Of a DNA stretch of 64,000 nt, positions 35,933 through 45,831 are shown in pieces; position 1 is the stretch's first letter; each line of letters begins with the position of its first letter. A model generated the notes under the pieces. That model searched no databases. It was given only the letters and a program-made list of their open reading frames with translations, and was not told the origin of the DNA. The stretch lies in the NCBI RefSeq assembly GCF_988242995.1, contig NZ_OZ547043.1; one strand, given 5' to 3'. Both the position numbers and the translations under genes were made by a program.

Positions 35933-37441
<1,509 letters not shown>

Positions 37442-37485
37442 GGGAAGGCGTTTTACCGAAAATCCCACGTCATAATCAGAAGCAG

Positions 37486-37521
37486 GCAGAGGGCAATCAG
37501 TGATTGCCCTCTGCGTTTTTT
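37486..37521 (+). terminator. rho-independent terminator after putP
   Basis: gcagagggcaatcagtgattgccctctgc stem followed by tttttt. Confidence 0.7.
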
Positions 37522-37660
37522 CTCAAAATATTTTTACATTTTCTCATCATTATCACTACATTCCGCTTGTATTTTTCTTTGCCGTAATGATAATCGCTAT
37601 CACTGCGATTTACTTTTCTTTGCATAGATTGACTCAGAAAAACGTTTAAGGGTGGGTGGC

Positions 37661-38491
37661 ATGTTTGTTCCATTTCTCATTATGTTGCGCGAAGGACTTG
37701 AAGCCGCGCTGATTGTCAGTTTGATTGCCAGCTATCTTAAGCGTACCCAGCGAGGCCGATGGATTGGTGTGATGTGGATTGGCGTGTTGCTTGCCGCTGC
37801 GTTGTGCCTGGGCTTGGGTATCTTCATTAACGAAACCACCGGCGAATTTCCGCAAAAAGAACAGGAACTGTTTGAAGGTATCGTGGCGGTGATCGCCGTG
37901 GTGATCCTTACCTGGATGGTTTTCTGGATGCGCAAAGTGTCGCGCAACGTCAAAGTACAACTGGAGCAGGCAGTCGATAGCGCATTGCAGCGTGGAAATC
38001 ATCATGGCTGGGCGCTGGTGATGATGGTCTTTTTTGCCGTTGCAAGGGAGGGGCTGGAGTCGGTCTTTTTCCTGCTGGCGGCGTTTCAACAAGATGTCGG
38101 GATTTGGCCGCCGCTGGGTGCAATGCTCGGTCTTGCTACAGCCGTGGTGCTTGGCTTCCTGCTCTACTGGGGCGGTATTCGCCTCAATCTTGGTGCATTT
38201 TTTAAATGGACCAGTCTGTTTATTCTCTTCGTCGCCGCTGGGCTGGCAGCTGGTGCCATTCGCGCATTTCATGAAGCCGGATTGTGGAACCACTTTCAGG
38301 AAATCGCCTTCGATATGAGCGCGGTGCTCTCAACTCACTCGCTGTTTGGCACGCTGATGGAAGGGATTTTTGGCTATCAGGAAGCGCCAAGTGTCAGCGA
38401 AGTCGCCGTCTGGTTTATTTATCTCATCCCAGCGCTGGTGGCATTTGCGCTGCCGCCACGTGCAGGGGCGACAGCGTCTCGCTCCGCGTAA
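37661..38491 (+). CDS. efeU: ferrous iron permease EfeU (intact)
   Basis: 276 aa uninterrupted ORF from ATG 37661 (MFVPFLIMLREGLEA) with REGLE motifs. Confidence 0.85.
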   Translation: MFVPFLIMLREGLEAALIVSLIASYLKRTQRGRWIGVMWIGVLLAAALCLGLGIFINETTGEFPQKEQELFEGIVAVIAVVILTWMVFWMRKVSRNVKVQLEQAVDSALQRGNHHGWALVMMVFFAVAREGLESVFFLLAAFQQDVGIWPPLGAMLGLATAVVLGFLLYWGGIRLNLGAFFKWTSLFILFVAAGLAAGAIRAFHEAGLWNHFQEIAFDMSAVLSTHSLFGTLMEGIFGYQEAPSVSEVAVWFIYLIPALVAFALPPRAGATASRSA

Positions 38492-38548
38492 CAAATACGA
38501 CGCAAACTCTTGCTTAGTTACAACATACTTTAAAGGGATAGTCTCGTC

Positions 38549-39676
38549 ATGACCATTAACTTCCGCCGTAACGCATTGCAGTTGAGCGTGGCTGCGCTGT
38601 TCTCTTCTGCTTTTATGGCTAACGCCGCCGATATTCCGCAAGTCAAAGTCACCGTGACGGATAAGCAGTGCGAACCGATGACCATTACGGTTAACGCCGG
38701 GAAAACACAGTTCATTATTCAGAACCACAGCCAGAAGGCGCTGGAGTGGGAGATCCTCAAAGGCGTGATGGTGGTGGAAGAGCGAGAAAATATCGCCCCT
38801 GGCTTTAGCCAGAAAATGACGGCGAATTTACAGCCTGGCGAATACGATATGACCTGCGGTCTGCTGACTAACCCGAAAGGGAAGTTGATCGTTAAAGGTG
38901 AAGCAACGGCGGATGCGGCGCAAAGCGATGCGCTGTTAAGTCTTGGTGGTGCAATTACTGCATATAAAGCGTATGTCATGGCGGAAACCACGCAGCTGGT
39001 GACCGACACCAAAGCCTTTACCGACGCTATTAAAGCAGGCGATATCGAAAAAGCAAAAGCACTGTATGCGCCGACGCGCCAGCACTATGAGCGCATTGAA
39101 CCGATTGCTGAACTGTTCTCCGATCTGGATGGTAGCATTGACGCCCGTGAAGATGATTACGAGCAAAAAGCCGCCGATCCAAAATTCACCGGTTTCCACC
39201 GTCTGGAAAAAGCATTGTTTGGCGATAACACCACCAAAGGGATGGATAAGTATGCCGACCAGCTTTATACCGATGTGGTCGATTTGCAAAAACGCATCAG
39301 TGAACTGGCTTTCCCTCCGTCAAAAGTGGTCGGCGGTGCAGCCGGACTGATTGAGGAAGTGGCAGCCAGCAAAATCAGCGGTGAAGAAGATCGCTACAGC
39401 CACACCGATCTGTGGGATTTCCAGGCTAACGTTGAAGGCTCGCAGAAAATTGTCGATCTGCTGCGTCCACAACTGCAAAAGGCCAACCCGGAACTGCTGG
39501 CAAAAGTCGATGCCAATTTCAAAAAGGTCGATACCATTCTGGCGAAATACCGTACTAAAGACGGTTTTGAAACCTACGACAAATTGACCGATGCTGACCG
39601 TAATGCGCTGAAAGGGCCGATTACTGCGCTGGCGGAAGATCTGGCGCAACTTCGCGGTGTGCTGGGGCTGGATTAA
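38549..39676 (+). CDS. efeO: periplasmic iron-uptake protein EfeO
   Basis: 375 aa ORF with signal peptide. Confidence 0.93.
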
Positions 39677-39681
39677 GCGTT

Positions 39682-40953
39682 ATGCAGTATGAAGATGAAA
39701 ACGGCGTGAATGAACCGTCACGCCGACGTTTACTGAAAGGGATTGGTGCGCTGGCGCTGGCGGGAAGTTGTCCGGTCGCTCATGCACAAAAAACGCAAAG
39801 TGCACCGGGTACGCTTTCACCGGATGCACGCAATGAGAAACAGCTGTTTTATGGTGAGCATCAGGCAGGGATCCTGACGCCACAACAGGCCGCAATGATG
39901 CTGGTGGCGTTTGATGTGCTTGCCAGCGATAAAGCCGATCTTGAGCGGTTGTTTCGCTTGTTGACTCAGCGTTTTGCTTTTCTGACTCAGGGCGGAGCAG
40001 CACCAGAAACGCCAAATCCGCGCCTGCCACCACTCGATTCCGGCATTCTTGGCGGCTACATTGCGCCCGATAATCTCACCATCACATTATCGGTGGGCCA
40101 CTCATTGTTTGATGAGCGCTTTGGCCTTGCGTCGCAGATGCCGAAAAAGTTGCAGAAGATGACGCGTTTCCCCAACGACTCGCTTGATGCAGCATTATGT
40201 CATGGTGATGTGTTGCTACAAATTTGCGCCAACACCCAGGATACGGTGATCCATGCGCTGCGCGATATCATCAAACACACGCCGGATTTGCTCAGTGTGC
40301 GCTGGAAGCGGGAAGGGTTTATTTCCGATCACGCGGCGCGTAGTAAAGGCAAAGAGACGCCGATTAATTTGCTGGGTTTCAAAGACGGCACTGCCAATCC
40401 CGATAGCCAGAATGATAAGTTGATGCAAAAAGTGGTGTGGGTGACGGCAGATCAGCAGGAGCCTGCGTGGACAATCGGCGGCAGCTACCAGGCGGTGCGG
40501 TTGATTCAGTTTCGGGTGGAATTTTGGGACAGAACGCCGCTGAAAGAACAGCAGACGATATTTGGGCGTGATAAGCAAACCGGCGCGCCGCTGGGAATGC
40601 AGCATGAGCATGATGTTCCCGATTACGCCAGCGATCCGGAAGGGAAGGTGATTGCGCTGGACAGCCATATCCGGCTGGCGAATCCCCGCACGCCAGAGAG
40701 TGAGTCAAGTCTGATGCTGCGTCGTGGCTACAGTTATTCGTTGGGCGTCACCAACTCCGGACAACTGGATATGGGGCTACTGTTTGTCTGCTATCAACAC
40801 GATCTGGAAAAAGGCTTCCTGACAGTACAAAAAAGGCTCAATGGCGAAGCGCTGGAGGAATACGTTAAACCTATCGGCGGCGGTTATTTTTTTTCGCTGC
40901 CGGGAGTGAAGGACGCGAACGATTATCTCGGAAGCGCGTTATTACAGGTTTGA
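39682..40953 (+). CDS. efeB: Tat-exported DyP-type heme peroxidase EfeB
   Basis: 423 aa, twin-arginine signal [10 protein letters not shown]. Confidence 0.93.
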
Positions 40954-40959
40954 ACGACG

Positions 40960-41060
40960 CAAATATGCCCGATGCGCAGGTTTATCGGGCATGAGTTTTG
41001 TGCACAAATTATTAATCACTTGTAGGTCGGGTAAGGCGTTCACGCCGCATCCGGCAAGTT
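40960..41060. repeat. REP-type palindromic elements
   Basis: gcccgatgcgcaggtttatcgggc and tgtaggtcgggtaaggcgttcacgccgcatccggcaag after efeB. Confidence 0.5.
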
Positions 41061-41275
41061 TTTACCAGTACTGCGAATCCTGCTGAAAGCACACAGCTTT
41101 TTTCATCACTGTCATCACTCTGTCATCTTTCCAGCAGAAACTAATGTCACTGAAATGGGTGTTTATCGTTAAACACAAGTAAATATAATGTTGCAATGAA
41201 TGCGAGTTCTGTTGTAATTATTAAGTAGCAGCGGAAGTTCCCGGCAGTGATAGTCAGTCACTATGGAGATCGCGG

Positions 41276-42340
41276 ATGGTAACGTCCTGTACTGGACATG
41301 TTTTAGATAATCAGCGCGCCACCACTCGCGGAGATTTCTCCTCCGGTAGCAACTTCGTCACTTTGTATTTTCAACCTCATCCTTTCTTTTCATGTGTTAC
41401 CGACGCCGTAAACGGTGCGCGTAGCCGTTTTTCGGCATTTTATCCAAAAGCAAACTATGGCTTACAAGGAAGCCAACCCTCTGATGTTCGTGCGCATAAT
41501 CGCGCTGCCAACGGCGCGTGTGATGAATACAAACAACTCAAGGTGCTCTCCATGGGAAGACAAAAAGCAGTGATCAAAGCTCGTCGCGAGGCAAAACGTG
41601 TGCTGAGACGGGATTCGCGCAGCCATAAGCAGCGTGAAGAAGAATCGGTCACCTCGCTTGTGCAGATGAGCGGCGTAGAAGCCATTGGTATGGCCCGCGA
41701 CAGTCGCGATACCTCGCCCATCCTCGCGCGAAATGAAGCGCAATTGCACTATCTGAAGGCTATTGAGAGTAAGCAGCTGATATTCGCCACGGGCGAAGCC
41801 GGGTGCGGAAAAACCTGGATCAGCGCAGCAAAAGCGGCAGAGGCCCTGATACATAAGGATGTCGACAGGATTATCGTCACCCGTCCAGTTCTGCAAGCCG
41901 ATGAAGATCTTGGCTTCTTACCTGGAGATATCGCAGAAAAGTTTGCTCCCTATTTTCGTCCGGTCTACGACGTGCTGGTCCGGCGCTTAGGGGCTTCCTT
42001 TATGCAGTACTGCCTGCGACCGGAAATAGGGAAGGTGGAAATTGCGCCGTTCGCCTATATGCGTGGACGTACCTTTGAAAATGCAGTCGTCATTCTTGAC
42101 GAGGCGCAGAATGTGACTGCCGCGCAAATGAAAATGTTTTTAACCCGCCTCGGGGAGAACGTGACGGTTATCGTCAACGGTGATATCACGCAATGCGATT
42201 TGCCTCGCGGCGTGCGCTCCGGATTAAGTGACGCGCTGGAACGTTTCGAAGAAGATGAAATGGTCGGGATCGTCCGATTCGGTAAAGAGGATTGCGTACG
42301 TTCGGCACTTTGCCAACGTACGCTACATGCATACAGTTAA
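41276..42340 (+). CDS. phoH: phosphate-starvation-inducible ATPase PhoH
   Basis: 354 aa, Walker A GEAGCGKT; translation may start at a downstream Met. Confidence 0.9.
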   Translation: MVTSCTGHVLDNQRATTRGDFSSGSNFVTLYFQPHPFFSCVTDAVNGARSRFSAFYPKANYGLQGSQPSDVRAHNRAANGACDEYKQLKVLSMGRQKAVIKARREAKRVLRRDSRSHKQREEESVTSLVQMSGVEAIGMARDSRDTSPILARNEAQLHYLKAIESKQLIFATGEAGCGKTWISAAKAAEALIHKDVDRIIVTRPVLQADEDLGFLPGDIAEKFAPYFRPVYDVLVRRLGASFMQYCLRPEIGKVEIAPFAYMRGRTFENAVVILDEAQNVTAAQMKMFLTRLGENVTVIVNGDITQCDLPRGVRSGLSDALERFEEDEMVGIVRFGKEDCVRSALCQRTLHAYS

Positions 42341-42357
42341 GTGTATTATCGGTACAG

Positions 42358-42388
42358 AGCCCGGGCGAACCGGGCTTTGTTTTATTTC
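42358..42388 (+). terminator. rho-independent terminator after phoH
   Basis: agcccgggcgaaccgggct stem followed by T-rich run. Confidence 0.7.
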
Positions 42389-42902
42389 ATTAACAGCAAA
42401 GACTTTCACTTCAGGTTAACGTTCAGGGGGGCGACTTTGAGCGTGTTGATAAGCTGAAATGAATTCTGGTTTAGATACTCTTACCAGGCATTTTTCGTCA
42501 TAGCACCCGACCAGTGTAATGCCGCCAGCGCGGAGAGTTTTTTGCCTATCTTTTTCCAGCCATTCAACCTGTACAGGAGGTCTGGTGCCAATTTTGCGTA
42601 TGAGGTTTAATCAGCAATGGGCCATAATTTGACTGACTGATTAACACCGAATATATTCTCCTGATTTTATTTTTTAGGGATAATATTAAAAATATAAGGT
42701 TAATCTTAATTAATTCTTCAGCTAATATTGTGTGTTGTTATTTTTTGTGGACGGCAAGCCGCAATGGCAAAATAGGTATGGTTGTAATAATCAAAACATG
42801 ATACTAACTATATATAGATCGTTGAATTGTTGGCATGTAACTCGCTACAGCGAGTAGCGTTAGTAATGAAATATAATCAACATGGATAGGTGAAGATTAA
42901 TT

Positions 42903-43589
42903 ATGAGCTTTATGGTTTTTGTAACTTGTTTGACAATTGCATTTGTCGCCGGTTTTGCTGTTGCCAGAAAATTGACACTCCGAAAAGTTGCCTCATCGGT
43001 AATCATCACTAGATCGCAACCAGTCCCTTCCTCTGCAACTTCCCCTGCGGCTAAGGCGTCGACAAGGAGCTATACACCGCAGAAAACCTATCGTGACTCT
43101 CGTTGGCAAGAACGAGATGAGTTGTTCCAGGGAATGGTTGCCGAAGGTATTTTATTGGAAGGAAAAGAGTGGTTAATTACGCGTTGTGAAAAAATTTATT
43201 TTGATAATCTGGAGAAATGGTTTGGACATTATTGTCATATCCATTGCCAGGTCTCTCTGGGGCGCTTGATCAACTTTCCAGAACAACCCGAGTTTAGCGA
43301 AGAAGAAAGAAAGCGTTTCTTTGCAATTTATAATGGAATGGCAATGGATTATGTTCTGGTTTCAAAGAAGAACAATAAAATAGTCTGTGTTATTGAGCTG
43401 GATGATCCGAGTCATGAAAGGGCAGATCGCATTATTCGTGACCGTTGGTTGAATACGATTATGACTATTGCACGGGTGCCTTTTGTACGAGCTTCTGTCA
43501 CTAAATTGGATGAAATCCCTCCGGTCTGGGATACCCGTGACAAAATTCGCCCATTAGCCGCGGCGACAAAGGGTGAACCGTTGCATTAA
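42903..43589 (+). CDS. membrane-anchored protein with DUF2726 / restriction-endonuclease-like C-terminal domain (accessory)
   Basis: 228 aa; N-terminal hydrophobic helix (FMVFVTCLTIAFVAGFAV); C-terminal DYVLVSKKNNKIVCVIELDDPSH resembles DUF2726; AT-rich 5' region. Confidence 0.7.
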   Translation: MSFMVFVTCLTIAFVAGFAVARKLTLRKVASSVIITRSQPVPSSATSPAAKASTRSYTPQKTYRDSRWQERDELFQGMVAEGILLEGKEWLITRCEKIYFDNLEKWFGHYCHIHCQVSLGRLINFPEQPEFSEEERKRFFAIYNGMAMDYVLVSKKNNKIVCVIELDDPSHERADRIIRDRWLNTIMTIARVPFVRASVTKLDEIPPVWDTRDKIRPLAAATKGEPLH

Positions 43590-43595
43590 CTAAGT

Positions 43596-43674
43596 ACCCC
43601 GGTCGGGGCTCCTCATCCCCCCGGTGTGTGCAATATACGAAAAAAAAGCCCGTACTTTCGTACGAGCTCTTCTT
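43596..43674. repeat. left copy of serX 3'-flank repeat (part A), interrupted by IS200
   Basis: 79 bp nearly identical to 44488-44565. Confidence 0.8.
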
Positions 43675-44385
43675 GTGCACAGAAAACCCCCAGCTAGGCT
43701 GGGGGTTCCGGAAAGCTTTCAGCTTTGAGCCAGTTATTAAAACCCCTTTTGATTTGTTAAAACACCTTGCGGTCTGGCAACTGCAAGTGTCAAACAAGAA
43801 ATCAAAAGGGGGTCCCAATGGGGGACGAAAAGAGCTTAGCGCACACCCGCTGGAACTGTAAATATCACATAGTTTTTGCGCCGAAATACCGAAGACTGGC
43901 GTTTTACGGAGAGAAGCGTAGGGCGATAGGCAGTATTTTGAGAAAGCTGTGTGAGTGGAAAAGCGTACGGATTCTGGAAGCAGAGTGCTGCGCAGATCAT
44001 ATCCATATGCTTGTGGAAATCCCACCCAAAATGAGCGTATCCGGCTTTATGGGATATCTGAAAGGGAAAAGCAGTCTGATGCTTTACGAGCAGTTTGGGG
44101 ATTTGAAATTCAAATACAGAAACAGGGAGTTCTGGTGCCGAGGGTACTATGTCGATACGGTGGGTAAGAACACGGCGAAGATACAGGACTACATAAAGCA
44201 CCAGCTTGAAGAGGATAAAATGGGAGAGCAGTTATCGATTCCCTATCCGGGCAGCCCGTTTACGGGCCGTAAGTAACGAAGTTGGATGCAAATGTCAGAT
44301 CGTGTGCGCCTGTTAGGGCGCGGCTGGTAACAGAGCCTTACAGGCGCATTTGAAAAACCTCCGGCTATGCCGGAGGATATTTATT
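43675..44385 (+). mobile_element. IS200-family insertion sequence (~711 bp, approximate ends)
   Basis: Left hairpin cccccagctaggctggggg, RBS-sequestering stem ccccttttgattt/aaatcaaaaggggg, tnpA, right hairpin cctccggctatgccggagg. Confidence 0.85.
43818..44276 (+). CDS. tnpA: IS200 transposase TnpA (HUH Y1 transposase)
   Basis: 152 aa from ATG 43818 (MGDEKSLAHTRWNCKYHIVFAPKYRR); HiH motif in ADHIHMLV, catalytic Tyr region GYYVDTVG. Confidence 0.9.
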   Translation: MGDEKSLAHTRWNCKYHIVFAPKYRRLAFYGEKRRAIGSILRKLCEWKSVRILEAECCADHIHMLVEIPPKMSVSGFMGYLKGKSSLMLYEQFGDLKFKYRNREFWCRGYYVDTVGKNTAKIQDYIKHQLEEDKMGEQLSIPYPGSPFTGRK

Positions 44386-44410
44386 TAAATATGGCGGTGA
44401 GGGGGGGATT
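44386..44410. repeat. left copy of serX 3' end repeat (part B): duplicate of last 19 nt of serX plus junction
   Basis: tttaaatatggcggtgagggggggatt vs tttaaagatggcggtgagggggggatt at 44564-44590. Confidence 0.8.
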
Positions 44411-44487
44411 GACTCGCTTCGCTCGCCCTGCGGGCAGCCCGCTCACTGCGTTCACGGTCTGTCCAACTGGCTGTCGCCAGTTGTCGA

Positions 44488-44590
44488 ACCCCGGTCGGGG
44501 CTTCTCATCCCCCGGTGTGTGCAATATACGAAAAAAAAGCCCGTACCTTCGTACGAGCTCTTCTTTAAAGATGGCGGTGAGGGGGGGATT
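44488..44590. repeat. right copy of ~104 bp direct repeat (serX 3' flank plus tRNA 3' end)
   Basis: Direct repeat of 43596-43674 + 44386-44410 with ~5 mismatches. Confidence 0.8.
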
Positions 44591-44659
44591 CGAACCCCCG
44601 ATACGTTGCCGTATACACACTTTCCAGGCGTGCTCCTTCAGCCACTCGGACACCTCACC
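44572..44659 (-). tRNA. serX: tRNA-Ser (anticodon GGA)
   Basis: 88 nt; minus strand reads GGTGAGGTGTCCGAGTGGCTGAAGGAGCACGCCTGGAAAGTGTG...GGGGGTTCGAATCCCCCCCTCACCGCCA with 7-bp acceptor stem, long variable arm, CCA encoded. Confidence 0.9.
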
Positions 44660-44853
44660 AAATTGTTGTTCCTGTCTTGCTGGAACGGGCGCTAATTTAG
44701 GGAAATCATGACCTGAGGTCAACAAACTTTTTTAAAAAATCGCGTGTTTATTCAAACTTCAATCAATATGCAGTTTTAATAAGCGAAATCTGCTTTTTTT
44801 GCCACCGACCACGGATTTGTTATGCTGGTGGCTTTTGTAGATCATAACGATAA

Positions 44854-45831
<978 letters not shown>

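Follow-up and report, generated by a model that had tools for sequence, protein, structure and literature searches.

The locus analysed here is very probably the ordinary wild-type efeUOB operon of E. coli (formerly ycdNOB), at its usual position in the chromosome, with putP on one side and phoH on the other. It lies within a window of 64,000 nucleotides from contig NZ_OZ547043.1 (RefSeq assembly GCF_988242995.1), in which the gene order is the rut operon, putA, putP, efeUOB, phoH, a DUF2726 gene, tRNA-Ser, ghrA, ycdXYZ and csg; the rut-putA-putP-efeUOB-phoH synteny agrees with that of annotated E. coli genomes. The low-pH ferrous iron transporter of this strain is probably functional, a fair conclusion from sequence because EfeU is identical to the O157:H7 protein, the key residues of EfeO and EfeB are kept and the proximal promoter is conserved. 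The intact operon is thus real, ordinary and already described: both the K-12 frameshift and the functional intact allele were reportedly published in 2006-2007, by Grosse (2006) and Cao (2007), and many later papers restate them.

Features of the efeUOB region (positions are those of the window)
Feature	Position	Strand	Description
Terminator-like hairpin with T-run, 3' of putP	37486..37514	+	13-pair stem with 8 GC pairs, then GTTTTTTCTC
Conserved efeU promoter/operator/5' leader block	37530..37660 (~131 nt)	+	defined by blastn homology
Fur-box-like site CGTAATGATAATCGCTATC	37583..37601	+	15/19 to consensus GATAATGATAATCATTATC; invariant in four strains
CpxR-like box GCAAAGAAAAGTAAA	37609..37623	-	9/10 to GTAAA-N5-GTAAA; invariant in four strains
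efeU	37661..38491	+	276 aa, Ftr1-type inner-membrane iron permease, intact
First REGLE (RExxE) motif	37688-37702 (aa 10-14)	+	cgc gaa gga ctt gaa
GG of codon 36 (GGT), CDS positions 106-107	37766..37767	+	one G missing in K-12
Second REGLE (RExxE) motif	38045-38059 (aa 129-133)	+	agg gag ggg ctg gag
efeO	38549..39676	+	375 aa, periplasmic cupredoxin + M75 (imelysin), intact
efeB	39682..40953	+	423 aa, Tat-exported DyP-type haem peroxidase/deferrochelatase, intact
Terminator-like hairpin, 11 nt past the efeB stop	40964..40993	+	11-pair stem with 5 GC pairs, weak T-tail (AGTTTTGTGC)

The ORF listing gives an open frame at 37652..38491 (+) that would encode 279 aa from an upstream in-frame GTG; read from the ATG at 37661, the gene has 276 codons and ends with a TAA stop at 38489-38491. 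Neither translation nor alignment revealed an internal stop or a frameshift within efeU. The same ATG start and the same gene length of 831 nt are found in the RefSeq annotation of strains TCM3e1, O157:H7 PV15-279 and SC418. The original prediction had described an intact 276 aa efeU with both REGLE-type motifs, followed by intact efeO and efeB, and had named a frameshift or premature stop as the observation that would overturn it. Re-translation found neither, the ORF listing bears out the exact coordinates, both motifs could be located (see table), and the downstream frames are uninterrupted and score above their equivalog cut-offs. An antisense ORF of 215 aa (37646-38293, minus strand) overlaps efeU; this and other overlapping ORFs were considered as genes and set aside as mechanical by-products of the coding strand.

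EfeU is recognised over its full length by family models. The Pfam FTR1 domain (PF03239) covers residues 1-275 of 276 (E = 1.8e-89; 300 bits against a cut-off of 25.3). The NCBIfam cut-offs are likewise exceeded, with 331 bits against 255 for the EfeU equivalog NF041756 and 352 against 304 for TIGR00145. At 100% identity, the protein matches WP_000497942.1 (EFEU_ECO57), the EfeU of O157:H7 PV15-279, TCM3e1 and SC418, and under the EFEU_ECO57 label it occurs in exactly this form on at least 1000 public contigs. Since the FTR1 match is full-length and the protein is a catalogued E. coli product present on that many contigs, efeU is no chance ORF. A sequence search against PDB found no relative of EfeU. 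A Kyte-Doolittle scan, which is a simple hydropathy profile and no dedicated topology predictor, gave six hydrophobic peaks above 1.6; the segment at about aa 116-140, which holds the second REGLE motif, stays below this threshold because of its charged residues. [quoted passage not shown]

The K-12 allele provides the most direct comparison. The MG1655 annotation (NC_000913.3) lists efeU as pseudogene b4490, with 830 nt as opposed to the 831 nt of the gene in the window. Alignment of the two alleles contains a single gap, at CDS column 106, where the window keeps both G's of codon 36; the K-12-type single-G deletion is therefore absent from this codon of the aligned window sequence. In frame 0, translation of the K-12 gene ends after 36 residues, and downstream of the gap its +2 frame encodes exactly the protein of the window. 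Apart from the gap, the two alleles differ at 17 nucleotides, all of them synonymous (97.95% identity). The claim that K-12 carries a frameshifted efeU pseudogene was thus confirmed by annotation, alignment and the literature, and the proposed alignment places the lesion at codon 36 (37766-37767). The same frameshift is stated in passages of PMC3577903, PMC2808357 and PMC7549933.

To see how common each allele is, complete E. coli genomes were searched with a 63-nt probe laid across the deletion junction of K-12 and with the corresponding 64-nt junction of the window; the counts cover the codon-36 site alone and not disruptions elsewhere in efeU. The K-12 junction was matched exactly in 368 of 5,382 genomes (about 7%), and the 40 of these 368 that were listed all look like K-12-type laboratory strains (MG1655, DH5alpha, C600, J53, NEB 5-alpha and others), judged either by their names or by genomes of about 4.5-4.8 Mb. 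Exact matches to the junction of the window were found in 3,633 of 5,398 genomes, with the rest falling within the 95-99% band. Because so few genomes carry the K-12 junction, the undeleted codon 36 is the species norm in E. coli and the K-12 lesion is the exception. The same counts bear on whether the intact frame might be a base-calling artefact at a short G run that conceals a K-12-type deletion really there. Sequencing errors are often single-base indels, and nothing specific to this site points that way. However, the site is merely a GG dinucleotide rather than a long homopolymer, the junction recurs exactly in those 3,633 genomes, and the window is clearly not K-12, given the 17 efeU substitutions, a different putP-efeU spacer and the lack of a pga operon. 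We consider the chance of such an artefact practically nil.

The two partner genes are equally well defined. EfeO, which has the type I architecture of cupredoxin plus M75, scores 481 bits against its NCBIfam equivalog (cut-off 270) and 774 bits against PRK10378. Its residues 13-115 match PF13473 (Cupredoxin_1, 1e-24) and residues 135-368 match PF09375 (Peptidase_M75, 1.8e-42), with the HxxE motif of the latter type present as HRLE at 217-220. PDB entry 7WGU is near-identical to EfeO over residues 27-375; the 26 N-terminal residues precede the start of that construct at residue 27 and qualify as a signal peptide. The cupredoxin domain keeps C41, E66, M101 and C103, which we take to be the proposed metal site. 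EfeB scores 616 bits against TIGR01412 (cut-off 428) and matches both DyP domains, PF04261 (Dyp_perox_N) and PF20628 (Dyp_perox_C). It carries a twin-arginine (Tat) motif, SRRRLLK, at aa 13-19, and PDB entries 2Y4F and 3O72 are near-identical to it. Residues D235, H329 and R347 are all retained; judging from DyP enzymes generally, H329 is presumably the proximal haem ligand and R347 a catalytic residue. For Asp235, the catalytic role is given by the title of a paper that PMC9174327 cites, Liu et al. 2011.

Substitution patterns are in line with this picture of three maintained genes. Comparison of efeU with four strains showed 18, 17, 14 and 4 differing codons, every one synonymous and none non-synonymous. 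For efeO, the ratio of synonymous to non-synonymous codons was 31:2 against O157:H7; for efeB it was 35:7 against O157:H7 and 29-50 to 7-8 codons across the comparisons. Because synonymous differences far outnumber non-synonymous ones, the pattern indicates that efeU, efeO and efeB are under purifying selection, the signature of expressed genes. Four EfeB substitutions (P55L, P151S, A405S and R422Q) separate the protein from all three references compared, and a fifth, A338P, separates it from O157:H7 and K-12. None of the EfeB and EfeO substitutions falls at a catalytic or motif residue that was checked, and EfeB with precisely this sequence is present on 65 public contigs of E. coli.

The genes are organised as an operon: they are co-oriented and closely spaced (57 nt between efeU and efeO, 5 nt between efeO and efeB), with a Fur-like box upstream and a terminator-like hairpin after efeB. 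The latter probably marks the end of the tricistronic operon, as its position and shape suggest. At the other end, putP stops at 37441, and the terminator-like hairpin that follows it delimits the efe transcription unit on the upstream side. Between these two points, blastn homology of the spacer to other strains begins at 37530 for O157:H7 and at 37558 for K-12 and SC418; the block from 37530 to 37660 is the sole part of the putP-efeU spacer common to K-12, O157:H7 and SC418, and within its last 78 nt (37583-37660) the window, O157:H7, K-12 and TCM3e1 do not differ at a single position (100% identity). We infer that the promoter is positioned within this block. A sigma-70 site, TTTACA-18-TACATT (37533-37562), was weak, with one found against 3.5 expected by chance, and is not relied on. 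When 37300-45000 was scanned with Rfam, no RNA family was recognised within the efe operon or its leader.

The same block holds two candidate regulatory sites. The Fur-box-like site is a putative operator for iron repression, and PMC3577903, in the text concerned with this operon, gives efeUOB as repressed by Fur. The CpxR-like box on the opposite strand is a putative site of CpxR repression at high pH; negative control of efeU by CpxR is mentioned in PMC9600279 and bioRxiv 10.1101/2024.12.09.627516. As repression by both Fe-Fur and CpxR has been published, EfeUOB would be active in iron limitation at acidic pH.

Upstream of the conserved block the strains diverge. The putP-efeU spacer (37442-37660) has the same length, 219 nt, in the window and in TCM3e1, is longer in K-12 (542 nt) and SC418 (653 nt) and reaches 2672 nt in O157:H7. 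It is a hot spot of structural variation, and only its proximal ~103-131 nt are homologous across the strains compared. Even the strain whose efeU and efeO are nearest, SC418, has a long, K-12-like spacer. In its distal part, the spacer of the window has no homology to the O157:H7 or K-12 spacers. Because this distal part is structurally different (219 nt as against 2672 and 542 nt), the upstream regulatory input of efeU could differ from that in O157:H7 and K-12.

We therefore asked whether the three ORFs might be intact and the system nevertheless silent or impaired in this strain, owing either to the EfeB substitutions or to a spacer that brings the putP terminator to within ~70 nt of the Fur-box region. 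In favour of this idea, efeB differs by at least 1.7% of its nucleotides from each of 5,417 complete-genome alleles, the four EfeB substitutions mentioned above are missing from three protein references, and the distal spacer has no counterpart in O157:H7 or K-12. Yet the substitutions spare the catalytic residues and the Tat motif that were checked, the efeB codon ratios indicate purifying selection, and the protein in exactly this form recurs on those 65 contigs. Moreover, the short spacer is also present in TCM3e1, whose efeU is annotated as intact, and the proximal block is conserved from 37530, its last 78 nt being those of O157:H7. Taken together, a silent or impaired system seems very improbable. 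A related proposal is that the 219-nt spacer and the diverged efeB (P55L, P151S, A405S, R422Q) would together make regulation or EfeB activity measurably unlike that of O157:H7, a prospect we rate as exceedingly slim; if true, it could mean, for example, that read-through couples efe to proline-induced putP transcription. The reading we prefer remains an ordinary operon that would be expressed and transport iron in this strain.

The operon region is somewhat more diverged than its surroundings. For 37400-41000, the best match among 5,418 E. coli genomes is 97.0%, and the surrounding 25 kb shows 98.3-98.8% identity to E. coli genomes with standard synteny. A binned comparison placed the excess divergence in efeB and the efeB-phoH spacer, with a mosaic pattern in which bins distant from TCM3e1 are near K-12, and vice versa. 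The efeU and efeO genes are 99.5% and 99.9% identical to those of SC418. In efeB, the identity to SC418 is 97.1% despite the adjoining efeO at 99.9%, and no complete genome among 5,417 comes closer than 98.3%; the efeB-phoH spacer (40954-41275) shows 25-28 differences per 200 nt, plus indels, relative to TCM3e1. A foreign origin of the operon, or an organism outside E. coli, was considered and ruled out by the mosaic divergence, the flanks and the fact that the exact EfeU, EfeO and EfeB proteins are all catalogued as E. coli. Judged by these comparisons, the divergence is ordinary recombinational mosaicism within the species and not the mark of a foreign operon.

Several observations concern the neighbourhood downstream. 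Read from the ATG at its first position, the phoH gene (41276-42340) encodes 354 aa, in agreement with the annotation of K-12 b1020; in other strains the current RefSeq phoH product has 262 aa and begins at an internal start, and the PhoH domain is limited to residues 149-353 of the 354-aa ORF. Antisense to the 3' end of phoH, Rfam Ysr251 (Yersinia antisense sRNA 251) matches at 42142-42335 on the minus strand, scoring 192.8 bits where the gathering score is 100. The pgaDCBA genes, which lie 3' of phoH in K-12, are missing from the window (42341-44860 compared); on the K-12 map, as we take it, ycdT, an IS3 copy and ycdU are also in the pga region. Between phoH and tRNA-Ser the window instead carries a 228-aa DUF2726 gene (42903-43589), as do SC418 and TCM3e1.

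Between this gene and tRNA-Ser(GGA) (44572-44659, minus strand), the region 43596-44660 holds an IS200-type element. Its Y1 transposase ORF occupies 43818-44276 (Pfam Y1_Tnp, 7.9e-37), and Rfam STnc490 matches at 43685-43808. The insertion is flanked by a direct repeat of ~79 nt (43596-43674 and 44488-44565), which corresponds to a duplication of the normal DUF2726-tRNA spacer, and 30 nt from the 3' end of tRNA-Ser recur as a partial copy at 44381-44410 (compare 44561-44590). IS200 is not expected to make duplications as long as ~79 nt. SC418 is without an insertion at this site, its spacer being 91 nt.

With regard to mechanism, EfeU would be a seven-helix permease of the inner membrane in which the two RExxE motifs are the presumed sites of iron translocation, and in published work EfeUOB as a whole is an oxidase-dependent route of Fe2+ uptake like yeast Fet3p-Ftr1p. 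EfeB and EfeO are described in PMC9174327, in the part on these proteins, as a Tat-exported haem DyP peroxidase and a Sec-exported cupredoxin-M75 protein, respectively. Passages of PMC3577903 attribute to EfeUOB the uptake of Fe2+ in acidic, iron-poor medium and state that a complete EfeU is needed. For O157:H7, the system was reported to be functional by Cao 2007, as relayed by citing papers such as PMC3577903 and PMC9174327. The 1-bp deletion in efeU codon 36 cost K-12 the system, a loss that this strain, like most E. coli, has not suffered.

Use of haem iron in the periplasm may also belong to the activities of EfeUOB, as it too has been reported. This leads to a different view of the intact operon, in which EfeB, acting with EfeO, either frees iron from periplasmic haem (deferrochelation) or oxidises Fe2+ peroxidatively, and EfeU imports the resulting Fe3+. 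Such a view is compatible with the explanation we prefer, for it concerns mechanism and not gene integrity; the description as a low-pH ferrous transporter would then be incomplete. The name 'deferrochelatase/peroxidase subunit' that NCBIfam gives to EfeB fits it, as does the presence of the presumed haem ligand H329 and of the catalytic D235 and R347. In the passages at issue, PMC3577903 states that O157:H7 EfeUOB extracts haem iron in the periplasm and calls EfeU orthologues 'most likely Fe3+ permeases', and PMC9174327 names peroxidase activity, haem/PPIX binding and deferrochelatase activity as functions that have been proposed for EfeB. On the other hand, the citing papers, in what they say of uptake at acidic pH, assign to the system a transport of Fe2+ that depends on complete EfeU, and sequence does not discriminate between the substrates. 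We regard haem or Fe3+ as the main substrate as rather unlikely; according to the relevant passages of PMC9174327 and PMC3577903, debate continues over what EfeO and EfeB do and over which form of iron is the physiological substrate.

Among known systems, EfeUOB of E. coli O157:H7 is closest, sharing the locus, the gene order, the gene lengths, a 100% identical EfeU and the 78 nt upstream. The differences amount to two changes in EfeO (373/375 identical), seven in EfeB (416/423) and 18 synonymous changes in efeU, together with the O157:H7 spacer of 2672 nt, which contains an extra 1344-nt hypothetical ORF, as against 219 nt in the window. The O157:H7 system, EfeUOB (YcdNOB), is reportedly the subject of Cao et al. 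2007 (Mol Microbiol 65:857), and EfeU of E. coli Nissle 1917 is said to be that of Grosse et al. 2006 (Mol Microbiol 62:120). K-12 MG1655 has the same operon at the same locus (efeU b4490, efeO b1018, efeB b1019), but it has lost the codon-36 G, has a 542-nt spacer and carries pgaABCD downstream of phoH. With the high-affinity iron uptake system Ftr1p-Fet3p of yeast (OFeT family), the operon has in common an FTR1-family permease, paired RExxE motifs and an extracytoplasmic redox or metal-binding partner; in yeast this partner is a multicopper oxidase, whereas here it is a DyP haem peroxidase together with a cupredoxin-M75 protein. Similarity to Ftr1p is put at only about 25% in a passage of PMC3577903. 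Related bacterial systems include B. subtilis YwbLMN/EfeUOB, S. aureus FepABC, Bordetella FtrABCD, E. coli F11 FetMP and Campylobacter P19-cFtr1.

Past correct annotation, the intact operon is of little consequence. The strain may be credited with a potentially functional, siderophore-independent and acid-favoured iron uptake, like most E. coli and unlike K-12, and this would be relevant when K-12-based metabolic or regulatory models are moved to other strains.
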